From: Escherichia coli
GTDB lineage: Bacteria > Pseudomonadota > Gammaproteobacteria > Enterobacterales > Enterobacteriaceae
DNA length: 6,739 bases
Assembly (NCBI RefSeq): GCF_003334255.1
Contig: NZ_QOWU01000099.1
Reading direction: 5' to 3' (one strand)
Shown here one piece after another: positions 57 to 6,739 of this stretch. Both the position numbers and the translations under genes were made by a program. Within the stretch, counting starts at the first letter, position 1. Each line of letters opens with the position of its first letter. The notes under the pieces are model-generated. The model had not been told where the DNA came from. It searched no databases and saw only the letters and a program-made list of their open reading frames with translations.

Positions 57-100
57 GGTGAAAAAAGACAAAACCCCGCGCACCGGAAAGGTGGCGGGGG
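57..100 (-). terminator. Rho-independent terminator, minus strand
   Basis: GC-rich hairpin: 74-79 pairs with 94-99 and 81-84 pairs with 90-93, with one bulged G at 80 and a 5-nt loop GGAAA. On the minus strand it is followed by TTTTGTCTTTTTT (reverse complement of 61-73). The plus strand has no T-tract after the stem, so it is unidirectional. Confidence 0.5.
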
Positions 101-163
101 ATTCACGGAGATAATATCTGTCTGAAATTGTTTTGAATCGATGGGATTGTTGCGTATTAACAT

Positions 164-204
164 GAAGGAGATCAGGACTTATCCGTTACTGGGTGATCTC
201 CTTC
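164..204. repeat. 11-bp perfect inverted repeat GAAGGAGATCA / TGATCTCCTTC with 19-nt loop
   Basis: 164-174 is the exact reverse complement of 194-204. Pairing can extend to 161-163 with 206-208 if C205 is bulged. The arm contains an SD-like AAGGAG and a GATC site. Confidence 0.8.
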
Positions 205-1199
205 CATGAAAATACGCCGTTATTGTTAAACAGCAGGCTGATTTCTCCGTAAAGGGGAAAATATTTATCGGCTGCATGATTATCAGGTGTGTCTGTGTTT
301 ACTGCTGTGAGTATTTTTCAGAGTATTGTGGGGGAGATGTCAGTGGGAGATATTAAATTTACGTTTATAATTATCTTACTTCTTCTGTGTGTTTTTTATA
401 AGAGTGCACACGTAATGATATCTGTTGATACCATGTGGTTAAGTGTTTCCCTTCCTGGTCATGCGTAATGATTAAATGCTTTTGTGACACCATTCTTCCG
501 GTCTGAATATTTATCCCGTTCTTTTTTATTTGTGCAGTGATACTGTCGGAAGAGAATTCAGTAATGTGAGGTGTCCTGGTCAGGATAATATCTGCTGAGA
601 TATTATTAGTTGAGAGTGTTTTTACTGAGCAAAAGCTGGCTTTTAATTCCTGTACTGAAACGCTGTCGCTCGTCCGGGGTTAACTGAAACTGGATGATGA
701 TGTAAAATGAAGGCTGTTTTTGTGTTTGTCGAAGAAGTGTTATTTTAATCCATTCTCATCATTGGCTGGCGATTATACAGAAGTATTTGAAGAAAAAATG
801 GTGCATTTTATCTGCGTCAGCAGGGAGGAAGTATTTTATTGATGTATCAGTATTAAATGGTTTTTGTTATTTATAAATATGTCATCCTGTCCATAGAATA
901 TTGTACTCAGCATTCAGTGCAGGAACTGTAGTCTTCTTTATTTTATTCTTCTTCAGGAGGGGGGGATTCCTGAAGGCGTTATTCCCGGTGTTCTGTTTAT
1001 GATTCTTCCCGGCAGGAAACCGGTATCTGCAATACCCGGGATGATGCTTTTTGTTCGTACGTGGTTGTGTAAAATTTGAATAGTGGATGTGCTCTGAAGG
1101 GAAGGAGGGGACACACAGATTCATTTTGTCTTTCTTCAGCAGCAAAACACACTGTGGTTATTATTTAACCATTAAATCAACAAAAATTTTTACCTCATA

Positions 1200-1227
1200 T
1201 TGATTTGACTGCTATTTTTGCTATTAA
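1200..1227 (+). promoter_or_regulatory. candidate sigma70 promoter for the yfjI-like gene
   Basis: TTGATT at 1200-1205 (4/6 to TTGACA), 16-bp spacer, TATTAA at 1222-1227 (4/6 to TATAAT), about 45 nt upstream of ATG 1274. Called by eye in AT-rich DNA, where such matches are common. Confidence 0.25.
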
Positions 1228-1273
1228 TAGCCAGAATTGCAGTGCTTTTATATCTGTGTGTAGTGAGGTTACT

Positions 1274-2758: not shown

Positions 2759-2817
2759 CCGGTGAGCAGTTTTTCTCCATTATGCTTCAGACTTAGATGA
2801 TTGATTATTATGGGGAT

Positions 2818-2857
2818 TTCATCACCGATATTCAGATGTATGAATATCGGTGATGAA
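2818..2857. repeat. 17-bp perfect inverted repeat with 6-bp spacer (TTCATCACCGATATTCA-GATGTA-TGAATATCGGTGATGAA)
   Basis: 2818-2834 is the exact reverse complement of 2841-2857; the spacer is 2835-2840. It lies between the convergent 3' ends of the yfjI-like gene (stop 2758) and the 197-aa gene (stop 3096). The stem is AT-rich and no T-tract follows on either strand, so it is not a classic intrinsic terminator. Confidence 0.9.
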
Positions 2858-3095
2858 CTAAAGCTCAGGAGCTGCGTGGTGGTGATGAATCAACAGGCAT
2901 ATAACTGATACCCGCCGGTCAGAAGTTCCAGCCTGCGACTTTCCTGTCTGCGTGCCCGCAGTCCGGCGTTCAGGTGCAGCGTGTGACAGAACGCACGGAG
3001 AGCGAAACGGCAGGCAGACAGGCCGTTCAGTCAGCCCTGGCACCCTGCCCGGATACCAGCTTCCCTGAAACAACTGGCATCAGGTGCGCTTATCG

Positions 3096-3689
3096 TCAAC
3101 CGTTGTGCGGTATGCCAGGAGCAACGTACTGATCCATCAGATCCGTCAGTGCTGCGCTCTGCTTCTGACGGTTGATGATCCATTCCTCCAGCTCTTTTTC
3201 TGATTTCCGTTTCAGATTCTCCGTCCAGTCGTCAAGGCAGTTTCCGGTCATTAAATCAAGCCAGCAAAGCCAGACCAGTTTGAGGCGCAACTCCGTGCCA
3301 CCAAACTGACGGAAGAGGCTAATCAGTTTATTTGCCAGAGAACGCTGCCTCAGACGTTCACATTCAGACAGGAGAATGCCTTCCAGCATCGGATGATGAA
3401 CCAGCAGATGTTCACTGGTGCATAAATTCACGATCAGATCATCATCCAGGGGCGGCGTGGCCCGTTTGTCAGGGCCATAAATCAGCCGGTGCAGGCTCTG
3501 GGGTACGATGGCAATCTCCGGTTTTTCACCATTGAATGACACCCACCCGGGCGTCAGATTATGGAAGTAGTAGATATTCGGATGACACACGCCCCAGGAT
3601 ACGGCGTGCCGGGTGAAGCCGGTCAGCCATTTCTGGTAGCTTTCGTGGAGCAGCTCGTAACGGGTCTGATACTGTGGTTTCATTTTCAT
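3096..3689 (-). CDS. hypothetical protein, 197 aa, unknown function, immediately downstream of alpA
   Basis: Track ORF 3096..3830 (-). The first 47 codons are low-complexity and overlap the alpA 3' end, so I trim to the internal MKMKPQYQ start. GAGGA (reverse complement of 3692-3696) lies 2-3 nt before ATG 3689 and 8-9 nt before ATG 3683, so 3683 is an equally plausible start. The body is protein-like, but I recognise no family or catalytic motif. Confidence 0.7.
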   Translation of the reverse strand: MKMKPQYQTRYELLHESYQKWLTGFTRHAVSWGVCHPNIYYFHNLTPGWVSFNGEKPEIAIVPQSLHRLIYGPDKRATPPLDDDLIVNLCTSEHLLVHHPMLEGILLSECERLRQRSLANKLISLFRQFGGTELRLKLVWLCWLDLMTGNCLDDWTENLKRKSEKELEEWIINRQKQSAALTDLMDQYVAPGIPHNG

Positions 3690-3710
3690 ATTCCTCACGG
3701 GGGATAACAG

Positions 3711-3752
3711 GCAGCAGAACGCCGCCGGCAGGCCGGAGACTGCGTCTGCTGC
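3711..3752 (-). promoter_or_regulatory. GC-rich intergenic hairpin between alpA and the downstream 197-aa gene
   Basis: GCAGCAGA at 3711-3718 pairs with TCTGCTGC at 3745-3752; the stem can extend to about 11 bp with one bulge, and the loop holds a CCGGC/GCCGG sub-palindrome. No U-tract follows on the minus strand, so read-through into the 197-aa gene is likely. Confidence 0.35.
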
Positions 3753-3769
3753 AGATGAACGGTTAAGAA

Positions 3770-3976
3770 TTACGGACGGGACTGTGCAATACGCGCCTGC
3801 AGCCAGGCTTCCACTTCGCTTTTCAGCCATCGGGAGCTGCGGCCCAGCTTGATGGGCGCAGGAAAGTCACCATCCTTGATGAGTTTGTAAAACCACTTAT
3901 CGGTCAGGCCGGTCAGTTGAGTGATAAATGCCATGTCGACCATCTGGTCATCCATCAGTGAAACTGGGGTGATCAT
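3770..3976 (-). CDS. alpA: AlpA-family phage-type transcriptional regulator (excisionase-like DNA-binding protein), 68 aa
   Basis: Track ORF 3770..4048 (-), trimmed to the internal ATG at 3976, which is preceded by GGAGG (reverse complement of 3986-3990) with a 9-nt spacer. The sequence FITQLTGLTDKWFYKLIKDGDFPAPIKLGRSSRWLKSEVEAWLQARI matches the AlpA family pattern (TGL...W.Y.LI..G.FP.PIKLG.R...W...EVE.WL) and the size is typical. Confidence 0.8.
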   Translation of the reverse strand: MITPVSLMDDQMVDMAFITQLTGLTDKWFYKLIKDGDFPAPIKLGRSSRWLKSEVEAWLQARIAQSRP

Positions 3977-4102
3977 GAGAATGTTCCTCCGGATGTTGTT
4001 AAACCAGCCGGTGTGGTCATGAAAACAACGCACCACCTTCACCGGCATAACAACCGGGGAGAAACGTAAAAAATAATCGGGAATGTGACCGCCAGGAGAT
4101 AA

Positions 4103-4120
4103 ACGGGGAGGTTACGGTGG
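4103..4120 (+). repeat. direct repeat copy 1: ACGGGGAGGTTACGGTGG
   Basis: 17 of 18 positions identical to copy 2 at 4248-4265. Flanks show weaker similarity (AGCCGTACC versus AGCCCGTGCC), giving about 35 bp of imperfect repeat. Each copy can form a GGTTACGG / CCGT(A/G)CC stem. Located 130-290 bp upstream of the alpA start, on the promoter side. Confidence 0.8.
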
Positions 4121-4247
4121 CTGAGCCGTACCGGTATGCCGGGTGGTTGTTACGAAACGATGCTTCCGCACGCGCGCGCTATAAAGAAGGGATGATTTTC
4201 GTGAGGAAGAGGGGAAAACTGGCGTTCTGATAATTGCAGAGTTATTT

Positions 4248-4265
4248 ACGGGGCGGTTACGGTGG
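4248..4265 (+). repeat. direct repeat copy 2: ACGGGGCGGTTACGGTGG
   Basis: Second copy of the 18-bp element, 145 bp from copy 1, with a single mismatch (A/C at position 7). Confidence 0.8.
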
Positions 4266-5196
4266 GGCAGCCCGTGCCTTGTGGGCAGGGACAGGTATCA
4301 CTGGTGGGATAAGGCTGTCTGATTGGTATTATAAATATAAGAAGTTATCAGAGAGTAACGTAAAGGATTTGCCAGAATAACCTAAGAGAGTAAATCTCTC
4401 CGGTAACAGAGCGCTGTGAAGCATTCTGTATCAGAGTGCAAATACATGAACGCTGATGCGTAAAATCAGCAGTGACACGCCAGCTCCCCCTGTGCCCATT
4501 CCTGTATAAGACATGAACTGAGCGTATTAATGCTCCTGCCCTGAGACTGAGCCGGTGAGTGAGGGGCTGAGAAATCCCTCTTGACACTGCTCTAAACCAG
4601 AAATACTTCCCCGGTTGTTGCGGTGCGTCCGGATCCCCGATAACGGAACACTAAGGCTGTATTGCGGGACACCAGGTAAGTGGCAGCCCGTAATACGTCA
4701 GGAGACGCGGGAAAAGTGAATTCCCACACGCGTTATAAACTTACCCTAGCGGAGCTGGAAGCCTTTAACTCTGCCGTTGACAACCGGCTGGCAGAACTAA
4801 CCATGAACAAACTTTACGATCGCGTTCCGGCTTCTGTCCGGAAATATGTCACCTGAACGTTCGGTAATCACAGCGGTATTGCGCCAGGTGTTATCTGCTC
4901 TGTGTGATTCTTTTTAGGGTTTCTCAGATTGTTAAAAGCTGAATATGTTCCTGTTGTCGGGAACCAGGATAATACAGGGAACATTAAGCGGTATAGCGAC
5001 AACAAAGCATTCGAAATCAAAAGGGAATGGTGTACGGAGTTGTGGGCAGTAATGGGCCGATTTTCGGGCATTACCGATCTCTGTTGAGGTTTTCTCGTAT
5101 TTGCCGGGGATCCGGTGCGTTACTGTCTGGCACAGCAAACGCAGAGGTGGCGGGGCGCTCTGCTCCGCTGATTCCGGATAATCCCTCCCCTGTAAC

Positions 5197-5394
5197 CTAC
5201 GGCAACAGTACAAATACACTGACGCCTGAAACGACAGCCAGAATCAGCACAGGCAGTAACGTCAGTAGACAAAGCAGACGATCGGTATTCCGGTAATAAT
5301 CGAAGGGATCTGCTGACACGTAGCCCGGGCAACATTCCGTATTATGAGGGATGGCGTTATCACAATCCCTGCACACCGTTTTGCGTATCACCAT
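5197..5394 (-). CDS. candidate small protein, 65 aa, Cys-rich N-terminus and hydrophobic C-terminal segment
   Basis: Track ORF 5197..5397 (-). Minus-strand sequence upstream reads TTGTGAGGAGGACGTG-ATG: a strong AGGAGG core 5 nt before ATG 5394. Product MVIRKTVCRDCDNAIPHNTECCPGYVSADPFDYYRNTDRLLCLLTLLPVLILAVVSGVSVFVLLP has CxxC-x9-CC followed by a ~25-residue hydrophobic stretch. It overlaps other short ORFs in a messy region, so the coding status is uncertain. Confidence 0.3.
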   Translation of the reverse strand: MVIRKTVCRDCDNAIPHNTECCPGYVSADPFDYYRNTDRLLCLLTLLPVLILAVVSGVSVFVLLP

Positions 5395-5488
5395 CACGTC
5401 CTCCTCACAATCTTATCCGTAACCGGCTTTTTGCATTAAAAAAACAACGCTGAAAATTCAGCCGTCAGTCCGGAGACGACAGTCGGGT

Positions 5489-5509
5489 TATCTCAGAGTG
5501 CCTGAGATA
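5489..5509. promoter_or_regulatory. 8-bp inverted repeat TATCTCAG-agtgc-CTGAGATA in the intergenic region upstream of the yagK/yfjJ-like gene
   Basis: 5489-5496 is the exact reverse complement of 5502-5509, with a 5-bp spacer. It sits about 90 bp upstream of ATG 5598 and about 95 bp upstream of the candidate divergent small ORF start at 5394. Short enough to occur by chance; position is what makes it operator-like. Confidence 0.3.
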
Positions 5510-5597
5510 TTGCCTGGTTGGAGATCACTTCAGGGACTCTGCGCATTTTTTACGGCGTGGTTAATCCGTATGAACGAAACCATACGGAGATTTAACC

Positions 5598-6167
5598 ATG
5601 ACCTACAAATGCAACCCCTTCTGGCAGCAACGTATTCGTGAGACGGTGCTGCACGCACTGGATGTTCATCCCCGTCTGACGGCATTGCGGGTTGATCTGC
5701 GTCTCCCGGATGTACCGGCAGCAACGGACGCGGCTGTGATATCCCGCTTCATCAATGCCCTGAAAGCCCGAATCGACGCTTACCAGAAACGTAAGCATCG
5801 GGAAGATAAACGCGTGCATTCCTCGACCCTGCATTACGCCTGGGCCAGGGAGTTCGGGGAGCTTAAAGGCAAAAAACACTATCAACTGCTGCTGCTGGTC
5901 AACCGGGATACCTGGTGTCGTGCAGGCGATTACCGCGCTCCGGGGTCACTGGCCGGGATGATTAAACAGGCCTGGTGCAGTGCCCTGGGGGTGGATGCCG
6001 GATGTTATGCCACGCTGGTGCATTTTCCGGTCAGGCCGGCGGTGTGGCTGGAACGCGATGATGATGCTGGTTTACGGGATATGCTGAAGCGTGCTGACTA
6101 TCTCGCGAAAGAGTACACCAAAGTCAACGGTACCGGTGAGCGCAATTTTGGCTGTAGCCGGAGTTGA
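5598..6167 (+). CDS. YagK/YfjJ-family protein (inovirus Gp2-like), 189 aa
   Basis: ORF 5598..6167 with GGAG at 5586-5589 and an 8-nt spacer to the ATG. Motifs RVDLRLP, VISRFINALKARI, HYAWAREF, HYQLLLLVNRD, LVHFP and the C-terminal NFGCS match what I recall of E. coli YagK/YfjJ proteins. Family call is from memory, not a search. Confidence 0.75.
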   Translation: MTYKCNPFWQQRIRETVLHALDVHPRLTALRVDLRLPDVPAATDAAVISRFINALKARIDAYQKRKHREDKRVHSSTLHYAWAREFGELKGKKHYQLLLLVNRDTWCRAGDYRAPGSLAGMIKQAWCSALGVDAGCYATLVHFPVRPAVWLERDDDAGLRDMLKRADYLAKEYTKVNGTGERNFGCSRS

Positions 6168-6425
6168 ACACGACAGGCGCACCAATACCCGGCAAACCAA
6201 AAGTATGGGTTGTTGTCTGGCGGCAACGATGTATCCACTCGCCCACTGACTGTTTTTTACGTCAGTGTTCCATTGTGTGACAACCACAGTGCTGTAACAG
6301 CAACCAGCCTGCTTTACCCAAACTCCAGTCCAGATTTTAACTGAACCGCCATTCACACCTGACCACACTGCCCGTACCGGGACGGCTGTTGCCTGCGTGT
6401 CGTCTGGCGGCTGAGGAATATGACT

Positions 6426-6739
6426 ATGTACGCTAAATCCTTTCTCGCACTTGATGGCAACGGGCGTCTGACGGGTGCCCGTACCGCACAGACTGCACCT
6501 TACGATCGCTACACTTGCCACCTCTGCGGCAGTGCGCTCAGATACCACCCGCAATACGACACTGAGCGTCCCTGGTTTGAACACACTGACGACGGGCTGA
6601 CAGCGCACGGTCAGCAGTGTCCTTATGTCAGACCGGAACGCAGGGAGGTACGCTTGATTAAGCGTCTGCAGCAATTCGTACCGGATGCCTTACCCGTGGT
6701 GCGTAAAGCCAGCTGGCACTGCAGACAATGTCACCACGA
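6426..6739 (+). CDS. Zn-ribbon protein, 5' part only (truncated by window edge), CoiA-like N-terminal pattern
   Basis: Reading frame open from ATG 6426 to the window end (104 codons, no stop). GAGGA at 6413-6417 gives an 8-nt spacer to ATG 6426; the ATG at 6420 is too close to it. The translation MYAKSFLALDGNGRLTGARTAQTAPYDRYTCHLCGSALRYHP..RPWFEHTDDG...CPYV...WHCRQCHH has CxxC, WFEH and a second CxxC, resembling the CoiA-type N-terminal zinc finger (CxxC ... HFxH ... C). Resemblance is by eye. Confidence 0.6.
   Translation, partial: MYAKSFLALDGNGRLTGARTAQTAPYDRYTCHLCGSALRYHPQYDTERPWFEHTDDGLTAHGQQCPYVRPERREVRLIKRLQQFVPDALPVVRKASWHCRQCHH

Follow-up and report, generated by a model that had tools for sequence, protein, structure and literature searches.

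An AT-rich intergenic region between divergent modules of a CP4-like Escherichia coli island, probably non-coding and with candidate regulatory elements at both ends

Here we describe positions 45 to 1273 of a 6,739-nt stretch of Escherichia coli DNA (the window throughout), which we consider quite probably a non-coding AT-rich spacer between two divergent modules of a CP4-like genomic island, its function concentrated at the two ends. One end carries a predicted promoter and leader hairpin before a GTPase gene and the other a conserved palindrome before yfjI; the ~850 nt between them would have evolved approximately neutrally, gaining small indels (including a 67-nt palindromic unit) and encoding nothing detectable. 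The roles proposed for the ends are drawn from homology and sequence logic. As an ordinary AT-rich intergenic region of an acquired island, non-coding and near-neutral, the stretch would no longer be suspected of concealing a gene or an RNA.

The region is 1229 bp long with 38.6% G+C, as delimited by the annotation of a matching locus and a composition count. To its left, at 1 to 44 on the minus strand, lies the 5' end of a GTPase family gene of the YkfA/YfjP/YeeP type with its ATG at 44-42, placed via the RefSeq annotation of a 99.9%-identical locus (L001, CDS 11172-12044 on the minus strand, ending at window position 44) and with its AUG also visible in the folded leader. To its right, at 1274 to 2758 on the plus strand, lies yfjI (494 aa, from the RefSeq annotation of the matching locus), residues 31-391 of whose product form a DUF3987 domain (Pfam, E = 1.9e-95). 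An earlier note on this DNA had begun the region at 101 and called it a leader upstream of the yfjI-like gene; with a divergent neighbour whose ATG sits at 44-42 on the minus strand, the left boundary moves to 45, and the stretch is instead a divergent intergenic region shared with the GTPase gene, nothing pointing to transcription of yfjI from far upstream. The same two flanking genes, GTPase on the minus strand and YfjI on the plus strand, are found in every lineage examined. The left module comprises the GTPase gene, Ag43 and YeeS/antirestriction genes on the minus strand, and the right carries yfjI (DUF3987 helicase-family) on the plus strand; the host element is a CP4-like E. coli genomic island, whose Ag43 and antirestriction genes and IS elements mark the DNA as horizontally acquired.

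Of 5426 complete E. coli genomes, 1857-1868, about a third, carry at least 80% of the length of the intergenic region, which makes this an accessory island. The matched stretch is almost always unannotated, with no feature under any full-length match among those listed. Full-length matches in a plasmid collection came only from E. coli records of 1-5 Mb, which have the size of chromosomes or of large pieces of assemblies and are not true plasmids; the remaining matches there were confined to the 67-nt palindrome described below. Across three lineages the region measures 1184, 1229 and 1327 bp despite divergence of up to 26%; that ~1.2 kb is kept in all three suggests that its presence or length may be under some constraint, beyond what the spacer reading holds.

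G+C content is 37.7% (442/1173) over 101-1273, compared with 45.1% in the yfjI CDS (1274-2758) and 52.6% over 2759-6739 (chi-square p = 1.3e-15 for 101-1273 against the rest of the window), and a 200-nt profile gives 0.315-0.445 inside the region and 0.40-0.605 outside it. Expressed as A+T, this is 62.3% in 101-1273 against 47.4% in 2759-6739, an AT-richness that H-NS-silenced DNA would show. Uniform composition is ruled out, and the earlier description of an AT-rich stretch in a compositionally mosaic window is upheld by the sliding profile and the counts; of the 60-nt hand counts offered with it, those at 301-360 (23/60) and 3301-3360 (29/60) stand, and those at 361-420 (17, not 18) and 5701-5760 (37, not 38) are corrected by one. 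The plus strand is also skewed over 145-1150 (T > A, p = 2.7e-6; G > C, p = 1.3e-5), which is unusual for neutral intergenic DNA and counts against the spacer reading.

The core at ~146-990 behaves as near-neutral DNA, diverging about as much as the synonymous sites of the flanking genes or more: Jukes-Cantor (JC) distances over 146-990 are 0.09 to lineage L003 and 0.26 to lineage L004, with flanking Ks of 0.10-0.16. The same interval holds 112 and 161 gapped columns, respectively, and indels between lineages are of 1, 2, 4, 29, 71 and 73 nt, many of them not multiples of three. An imperfect palindrome of 67 nt at 151-217 (inverted repeats I7 and I8) is an inserted or deleted unit, missing in the ETEC4079 lineage, whose homologies elsewhere are confined to the palindrome itself, in unrelated contexts on other E. 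coli chromosomes and plasmids. The remainder, at 218-990, is a fast-evolving AT-rich tract with a strong plus-strand G+T skew and no conserved ORF or RNA-structure signal. Inside the region there are no tandem repeats or iterons, the dispersed direct repeats are short and chance-like, and promoter-like sites are not enriched (5 vs 3.3 +/- 2.2 expected).

The alternative that survives best would give this core a function. H-NS prefers AT-rich horizontally acquired DNA in E. coli, and since the region has more than 62% A+T within such DNA, it is likely an H-NS target. It is a serious possibility, somewhat short of an even chance, that the region is a platform for xenogeneic silencing on which H-NS (with StpA or Hha) would nucleate and spread across the two divergent promoters and hold the GTPase/Ag43 module and yfjI silent, with length and AT-richness as the selected features. 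The A+T content (62.3% over 1.17 kb against an island average of ~50%), the accessory distribution of the island, the length kept in three diverged lineages and a partial hha gene 3.4 kb away in the same island are all consistent with silencing, as is the observation from RpoD gSELEX that 36% of 178 RpoD-holoenzyme sites in one tabulated group overlap H-NS sites (PMC3946193). However, the K-12 ykfA and yfjP promoters are not flagged for H-NS in that same table (PMC3946193), the core evolves no slower than synonymous sites, and the published high-affinity H-NS motif TCGATAAATT shows no enrichment (5 matches vs 6.8 +/- 2.6 expected), which is weak evidence either way. Silencing was also the view of the earlier note; it is compatible with the spacer explanation and differs from it only by a functional core.

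Coding potential is low throughout. Within 45-1273 the longest run free of stops spans 102 codons, compared with 82 +/- 17 in shuffles, 11% of which reach 102, and each of the six frames contains 15-30 stops across the region. The single ORF in the supplied track (882-1145, minus strand, 87 aa, TTG start) is not a gene: a -1 frameshift brings a stop at codon 21 in L003 and a length difference of -10 nt a stop at codon 64 in L004, and with its frame broken in both sister lineages we agree with the first impression that this Lys/Asn-rich ORF is translated non-coding DNA. Only two ORFs of at least 25 aa are intact in all three lineages, and these overlap the GTPase or yfjI start codons; there are none within the intergenic region proper, where each core ORF of this size is disrupted in either L003 or L004, leaving no small protein with a conserved start and Shine-Dalgarno sequence, and a long ORF in the core is absent from every lineage compared. 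The Shine-Dalgarno-like block at 955-965 on the plus strand (AGGAGG plus a G-run, AGGAGGGGGGG) likewise serves no start codon, as had been proposed, with no ATG, GTG or TTG 5-12 nt downstream and a G-run that varies in length and sequence in other lineages. A hidden CDS at 901-1300 was also considered, given a period-3 signal in 901-1200 (z = 3.7) and zero indels over 991-1273 at 24% divergence; it was rejected because the three codon phases have near-equal numbers of substitutions in 991-1273 (24/22/22, compared with 13/45/18 in yfjI, a one-phase peak with p = 8e-6) and because all six frames are stopped in both lineages.

We find it unlikely that the core is instead an eroded AT-rich cargo gene, most likely plus-strand and encoding a hydrophobic protein, that has decayed beyond recognition. 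AT-rich genes do fill equivalent slots of similar size (~1.15 kb) in related islands: in O55:H7 a 383-aa gene lies directly upstream of the GTPase gene and stops at the same conserved ~84-nt block, and in other genera alpA-yfjI is preceded by ORFs of 260-350 aa. Moreover, the plus-strand G+T skew is the kind of trace expected from a coding strand that was T-rich or hydrophobic, and the period-3 signal in 901-1200 is consistent with the same history. Yet tblastn against the equivalent-slot genes found no significant similarity beyond the palindrome region: a decayed copy of the O55:H7 gene was rejected after an empty search of 1-1300, and a remnant of alpA or of the cargo genes that precede yfjI in 16 further genera after tblastn and sensitive blastn returned the palindrome only. 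Translations in all six frames found no credible match in NCBIfam or PHROGs (best NCBIfam E = 0.078, 11.9 bits against a 400-bit cut-off), no lineage keeps a long ORF here, substitutions show no codon phase, and period-3 signal is absent over 100-900. Homology to a decayed known gene, which the earlier note had raised as an objection to its own account, was thus not found in these searches, and the objection falls.

The suggestion that the region conceals a small RNA or small protein gene now appears very improbable: a ~40-45 nt RNA could be released from the promoter at 137-111 if termination at the hairpin and U-run (99-61; both minus strand) were efficient, and one genome carries an annotated 100-aa hypothetical protein at 371-673 (minus strand), but such a leader RNA would be an attenuation by-product rather than an independent gene, the annotated ATG was made by a single substitution (G672A) in a frame broken in other lineages, Rfam covariance models gave zero matches at E <= 1 over the whole window, fold z-scores over 280-1080 are near 0 on both strands (-1.75 to +1.5), and no small ORF is conserved. 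Structural outliers are limited to the 67-nt palindrome (fold z = -4.5 on the plus strand and -5.7 on the minus strand) and the GTPase leader hairpin.

Returning to the spacer with functional ends, the GTPase-proximal ~100 nt contain a predicted sigma-70 promoter at 111-137 on the minus strand, with a -35 element TTCAAA (137-132), a 15-nt spacer and a -10 element TATTAT (116-111). The element aligns with the TTGAAA-15-TATCAT of K-12 yfjP and ykfA, homologous hexamers at the same 15-nt spacing, which are listed as RpoD-holoenzyme constitutive promoters (Shimada et al. 2014, PMC3946193) and for which RNA polymerase binding has been shown in vitro (PMC3946193). Between this promoter and the Shine-Dalgarno/ATG sits a leader hairpin with a U-rich run (61-99, minus strand; hairpin from 99 to 74 with 10 pairs and one bulge, U-rich from 73 to 61), reported as a terminator-like site by scan and with a centroid fold of -19.5 kcal/mol; a GC-rich hairpin with an immediate U-run is the sequence pattern of an intrinsic terminator or attenuator. 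K-12 yfjP (z -3.4) and ykfA (z -4.3) have a hairpin and U-run at the same place, with different stem sequence. If the promoter is used in this strain, a sigma-70 transcript would start ~5 nt before the hairpin and U-run, which may terminate or attenuate transcription or serve as a 5' stabiliser upstream of the GTPase ATG. The broader idea, taken jointly with an operator or origin role for the yfjI palindrome, that promoter, hairpin and U-run form a conserved transcription attenuator before YkfA/YfjP-type GTPase genes, is in our estimate unlikely. The conserved promoter and hairpin leader of these widespread island GTPase genes suggest attenuation control.

At the opposite end, the conserved 37-bp palindrome ACTGCTATTTTTGCTATTAATAGCCAGAATTGCAGTG (1208-1244, inverted repeat I2) lies 30-66 nt ahead of the yfjI ATG and consists of four GCTATT-type hexamers, the first two direct and the last two inverted. 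All of the yfjI homologues inspected, at ~20 loci in Enterobacterales genomes and IMG/VR contigs, carry it immediately upstream; it is kept across Enterobacterales and in K-12 CP4-57 and is the only block shared with the upstream regions of yfjI homologues of ~50% identity. The pattern TGCTATTT...TAGC...TAGC is invariant in 17 diverse sequences, K-12 CP4-57 included; matches to the palindrome pattern in IMG/VR lie upstream of yfjI in 4/4 cases, and the site is single in 25 kb of the island. Repeated words arranged beside a gene and conserved in its homologues are what operator or iteron sequences look like. In 90% of cells the dyad symmetry is preserved, by sequence invariance, with a covariation score that 104/500 shuffles reach, and such invariance without covariation is more in keeping with a DNA site than with a folded RNA; a reading as RNA hairpin or terminator was rejected on this ground together with the lack of a U-run after it in most homologues and a fold z of only -1.2. 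AlpA is not favoured as the partner because the site is unchanged beside AlpA proteins of 90% and ~35% identity to K-12 AlpA, and also where no alpA lies upstream. A literature search for the palindrome returned no paper carrying the sequence, and a sequence search of YfjI against solved structures gave no informative match.

The yfjI-proximal ~75 nt also appear to hold the only plausible core-promoter hexamers for the gene. The two candidates, read from the sequence, are P1 (1200-1227, plus strand; TTGATT at 1200-1205, 16-nt spacer, TATTAA at 1222-1227) and P2 (1224-1253, plus strand; TTAATA at 1224-1229, 18-nt spacer, TTATAT at 1248-1253); both overlap the palindrome, and neither was reported by a stricter promoter consensus scan. 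They are followed by a GAGG Shine-Dalgarno sequence at 1265-1268 (plus strand), invariant in 17 sequences. The palindrome may be an operator-like or origin-like site of the yfjI module; we read it as a putative protein-binding operator that travels with the gene. That it is the recognition site of the DUF3987 helicase itself or of a partner, serving control of its own gene and possibly the start of replication of the excised island, is a more speculative and improbable extension. If true, it would represent an undescribed operator or origin for CP4-57-type elements, and in this lineage the adjoining AT-rich tract would be an easily melted or H-NS-covered flank. The palindrome thus offers a testable handle on the control of an uncharacterised DUF3987 helicase gene, or on a replication site, of CP4-57-type islands.

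When considered among known systems, the region resembles the H-NS-silenced island intergenic regions of Enterobacteria in its low G+C relative to the host, its place in an accessory island, its divergent promoters and its lack of genes; it differs in that H-NS binding is here a prediction and the high-affinity motif is not enriched. A second likeness is by analogy only, with no sequence or protein homology claimed. Plasmid replication-initiator genes have inverted-repeat operators upstream, and the SV40 core origin has four inverted pentamers; the palindrome would share with these sites short inverted words and an AT-rich centre beside or over the promoter of a replication gene, DUF3987 proteins being helicases of mobile elements.

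Closer relatives are found in the cryptic prophages of K-12. The promoter regions of ykfA (CP4-6) and yfjP (CP4-57) have homologous -35 and -10 elements with the same unusual 15-nt spacer, and follow the same order of promoter, hairpin and U-run, Shine-Dalgarno sequence and GTPase ATG; they differ by one base per hexamer (TTCAAA and TATTAT here) and in an unrelated hairpin stem, and their homology to the present region ends upstream of ~145. The alpA-yfjI spacer of CP4-57 is 128 nt long, with alpA directly upstream on the same strand, whereas here 1.2 kb of unrelated AT-rich DNA and a divergent GTPase gene stand in the place of alpA and a gene for a 68-aa AlpA-like HTH protein lies downstream on the other strand. 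Even so, both spacers bring the palindrome (CCTGCTATTTCCGCCATTAATAGCGGAATAGCC in CP4-57) similarly close upstream of the start of yfjI (DUF3987), and both carry the GAGG Shine-Dalgarno sequence.

The AT-rich stretch at 101-1273 is a near-neutral, non-coding spacer between two divergent modules of a CP4-like genomic island of E. coli, a kind of feature already well known, and its conserved cis-elements are confined to the spacer ends. Positions 1-1300 are matched at 99.9% identity by megablast in many complete genomes, whose annotation places the 5' end of a minus-strand 'GTPase family protein' gene at 44 and the start of a plus-strand 'YfjI family protein' gene at 1274. The stretch thus belongs to a divergent intergenic region of 1229 bp (45-1273), shared with the GTPase gene, and is not the leader of yfjI alone as the earlier note had it. 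Leftward lie further minus-strand island genes (agn43, IS elements, DUF905, DUF932, antirestriction, YeeS), and rightward a hypothetical gene, an AlpA-like HTH gene, an hha fragment and YagK/YfjJ-type genes. DUF3987 spans residues 31-391 of YfjI (E = 1.9e-95), and proteins with this domain are helicases belonging to replication modules of mobile elements (PMC11724360, PMC5862659). The C-terminal ~100 residues of YfjI fall outside this domain; across its last ~50 codons (2600-2758) nucleotide identity between lineages is 29-78%, with indels, far more divergent than the remainder of the gene (100-nt bins at 88-100%). In the matching RefSeq locus a partial hha (hemolysin expression modulator) pseudogene is annotated; its counterpart in the window is an ORF at about 4680-4856 (+), flanked by more AT-rich stretches near 4300-4500 and 4850-5100.

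The AT-rich composition is borne out by measurement, with 37.7% G+C in 101-1273 vs 45.1% in yfjI and 52.6% in 2759-6739 (p = 1.3e-15), and the four 60-nt hand counts behind the original observation were correct to within one base. On the plus strand, 145-1150 has an excess of T over A (366 vs 249, p = 2.7e-6) and of G over C (239 vs 152, p = 1.3e-5), an asymmetry far exceeding E. coli replication skew. On general grounds, silencing of this putative H-NS target may reasonably be expected; neither promoter-like sites nor the H-NS motif TCGATAAATT were enriched in the region.

Of 5426 complete E. coli genomes, 1857-1868 contain at least 80% of the region, and at full length it was found in E. coli only, with no annotated feature beneath it in any of the full-length matches listed; the full-length matches in the plasmid collection are to E. 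coli records whose size (1-5 Mb) is that of chromosomes or large assembly pieces, not of true plasmids. Three lineages can be told apart by identity (98-100%; about 85-88%, including ST131 and Nissle-type strains; about 78-80%), separated by indels of 1, 2, 4, 29, 71 and 73 nt. Between lineages the flanking genes stay 95-99% identical; within the region, identity in 100-nt bins falls to 40-88%. With the Ks of the flanking genes (0.10-0.16) as neutral yardstick, Jukes-Cantor distances to L003 (85-88% lineage) and L004 (78-80% lineage) are 0.09 and 0.26 in the core (146-990) and 0.29 and 0.03 in 991-1273, and the intergenic region is a recombination mosaic that changes roughly as fast as synonymous sites, or faster. 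L003 carries a 71-nt insertion with a perfect palindrome, GATCACGGTTTGGCCAAACCGTGATC, between positions homologous to 468 and 469, and another insertion, of 29 nt, near 578. Within the region itself, a 67-nt imperfect palindrome, GCGTATTAACATGAAGGAGATCA...TGATCTCCTTCCATGAAAATACGC (151-217; fold z -4.5 and -5.7), has ATTGTT on both sides; the ETEC4079 lineage lacks it. Copies whose limits coincide exactly with the palindrome stand in unrelated contexts in other E. coli chromosomes (in O104:H4, next to a PerC-family regulator gene) and on large plasmids, among them pVir68 and a Yokenella plasmid; the unit has the look of a mobile or recombination-prone element of low copy number.

The suggestion that the region may hide small RNAs or small proteins found no support: Rfam gave no match at E <= 1, fold z-scores in 120-nt windows over 280-1080 lay between -1.75 and +1.5 on both strands, six-frame translations had no credible match in NCBIfam or PHROGs, and no ORF of at least 25 aa inside the intergenic region proper is intact across all three lineages, the sole two that are intact overlapping the GTPase or yfjI start codons. 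'ORF-poor' holds only insofar as nothing rises above chance (longest stop-free run 102 codons vs 82 +/- 17 in shuffles). The sequence does contain, as first described, the ORF at 882-1145 (-) and, at 955-965, AGGAGG plus a G-run; in each of the two sister lineages the ORF has a frameshift or is cut short. Prompted by a period-3 signal (z up to 4.3) at 901-1300 and by the freedom of 991-1273 from indels, we tested for a hidden coding sequence, an idea dropped because substitutions in 991-1273 are spread evenly over the three phases (24/22/22, p = 0.94, vs 13/45/18, p = 8e-6, in yfjI) and stops occur in all frames in both lineages. A 100-aa hypothetical protein annotated at 371-673 (-) in one RefSeq genome is an annotation artefact, its ATG being made by a single G672A and its frame disrupted in other lineages. 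In strain RM10042, the locus-tag number RS25765 is missing exactly at the intergenic region, between I3W_RS25760 and I3W_RS25770, which suggests an earlier gene call later withdrawn by the annotation pipeline.

Nor is there evidence of a recognisable decayed gene. In E. coli O55:H7 CB9615, the GTPase gene is immediately preceded, on its own strand, by a 383-aa hypothetical gene (L005 2584-3735) whose end falls within the conserved block, 84 nt short of the GTPase ATG, so that the slot is a variable cargo position in CP4-like islands. Upstream of yfjI, 16 loci of other genera carry AT-rich ORFs of 260-350 aa plus alpA. Genes from these equivalent slots, in O55:H7 and in the 16 loci, showed no resemblance to the window.

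For the yfjI end, 1-1300 was compared by sensitive blastn with the sequences that precede yfjI homologues of about 50% protein identity in Dickeya, Pectobacterium, Brenneria, Erwinia, Citrobacter, Kluyvera, Siccibacter, Mangrovibacter and others. Consistent similarity was confined to 1208-1244; two further matches were weak and at chance level (E > 0.1). An inverted-repeat search places the palindrome ACTGCTATTTTTGCTATTAATAGCCAGAATTGCAGTG here, with the consensus TGCTATTTCYGCYATTAATAGCGGAATAGCA in other loci, that is, four GCTATT-type hexamers, two direct then two inverted. It also occurs in the K-12 CP4-57 alpA-yfjI spacer, is with the GAGG Shine-Dalgarno the only invariant block of the yfjI 5' region in a 17-sequence alignment, and lay about 45 nt upstream of a yfjI homologue in all four matches of an IMG/VR pattern scan. 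The copy at 1208-1244 is single within 25 kb of the island, and no good second copy was found in 20 kb of CP4-57. Dyad symmetry, seen in 90% of cells, comes from sequence invariance instead of covariation (104 of 500 shuffles reach the covariation score observed), and in most homologues no U-run follows; a putative protein-binding DNA site therefore fits better than an RNA hairpin. The palindrome stays the same whether the neighbouring AlpA shares 90% or only about 35% identity with that of K-12, and in the window no alpA lies upstream of it; on the sequences compared, it travels with yfjI. Overlapping this putative protein-binding site are the hexamer pairs TTGATT-16-TATTAA and TTAATA-18-TTATAT, in our reading the only plausible candidates for a yfjI core promoter. 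A literature search found no paper containing the palindrome sequence.

At the opposite end, the 85-98 nt adjoining the GTPase gene recur in >4000 genomes before paralogous GTPase genes of other CP4-like islands. On the minus strand, a predicted sigma-70 promoter, TTCAAA-15-TATTAT (137-111), aligns within this shared block with TTGAAA-15-TATCAT of K-12 yfjP and ykfA, the exact sequence listed as an RpoD-holoenzyme 'constitutive promoter' of both genes (Shimada et al., PMC3946193). About 5 nt downstream of the expected start, a predicted hairpin (99 to 74) is directly followed by the U-rich run UUUUGUCUUUUUU (73 to 61), and then by the Shine-Dalgarno and ATG. Conservation here extends to the architecture but not to the stem sequence, suggesting a leader attenuator or a stabiliser of the 5' end; a conserved leader terminator/attenuator before island GTPase genes seems a likely reading and appears to be so far undescribed. 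This promoter-hairpin leader and the palindrome upstream of yfjI are small but testable by-products of the analysis. Like 61-137 (-) of the window, K-12 yfjP (L022 12640-12713) and ykfA (L032 2959-3060) present a 15-nt-spacer promoter, a GC-rich hairpin close behind it, a U-run and a start codon, the hairpin plus U-run standing at the same place (z -3.4 in yfjP, -4.3 in ykfA) with unrelated stem sequences.
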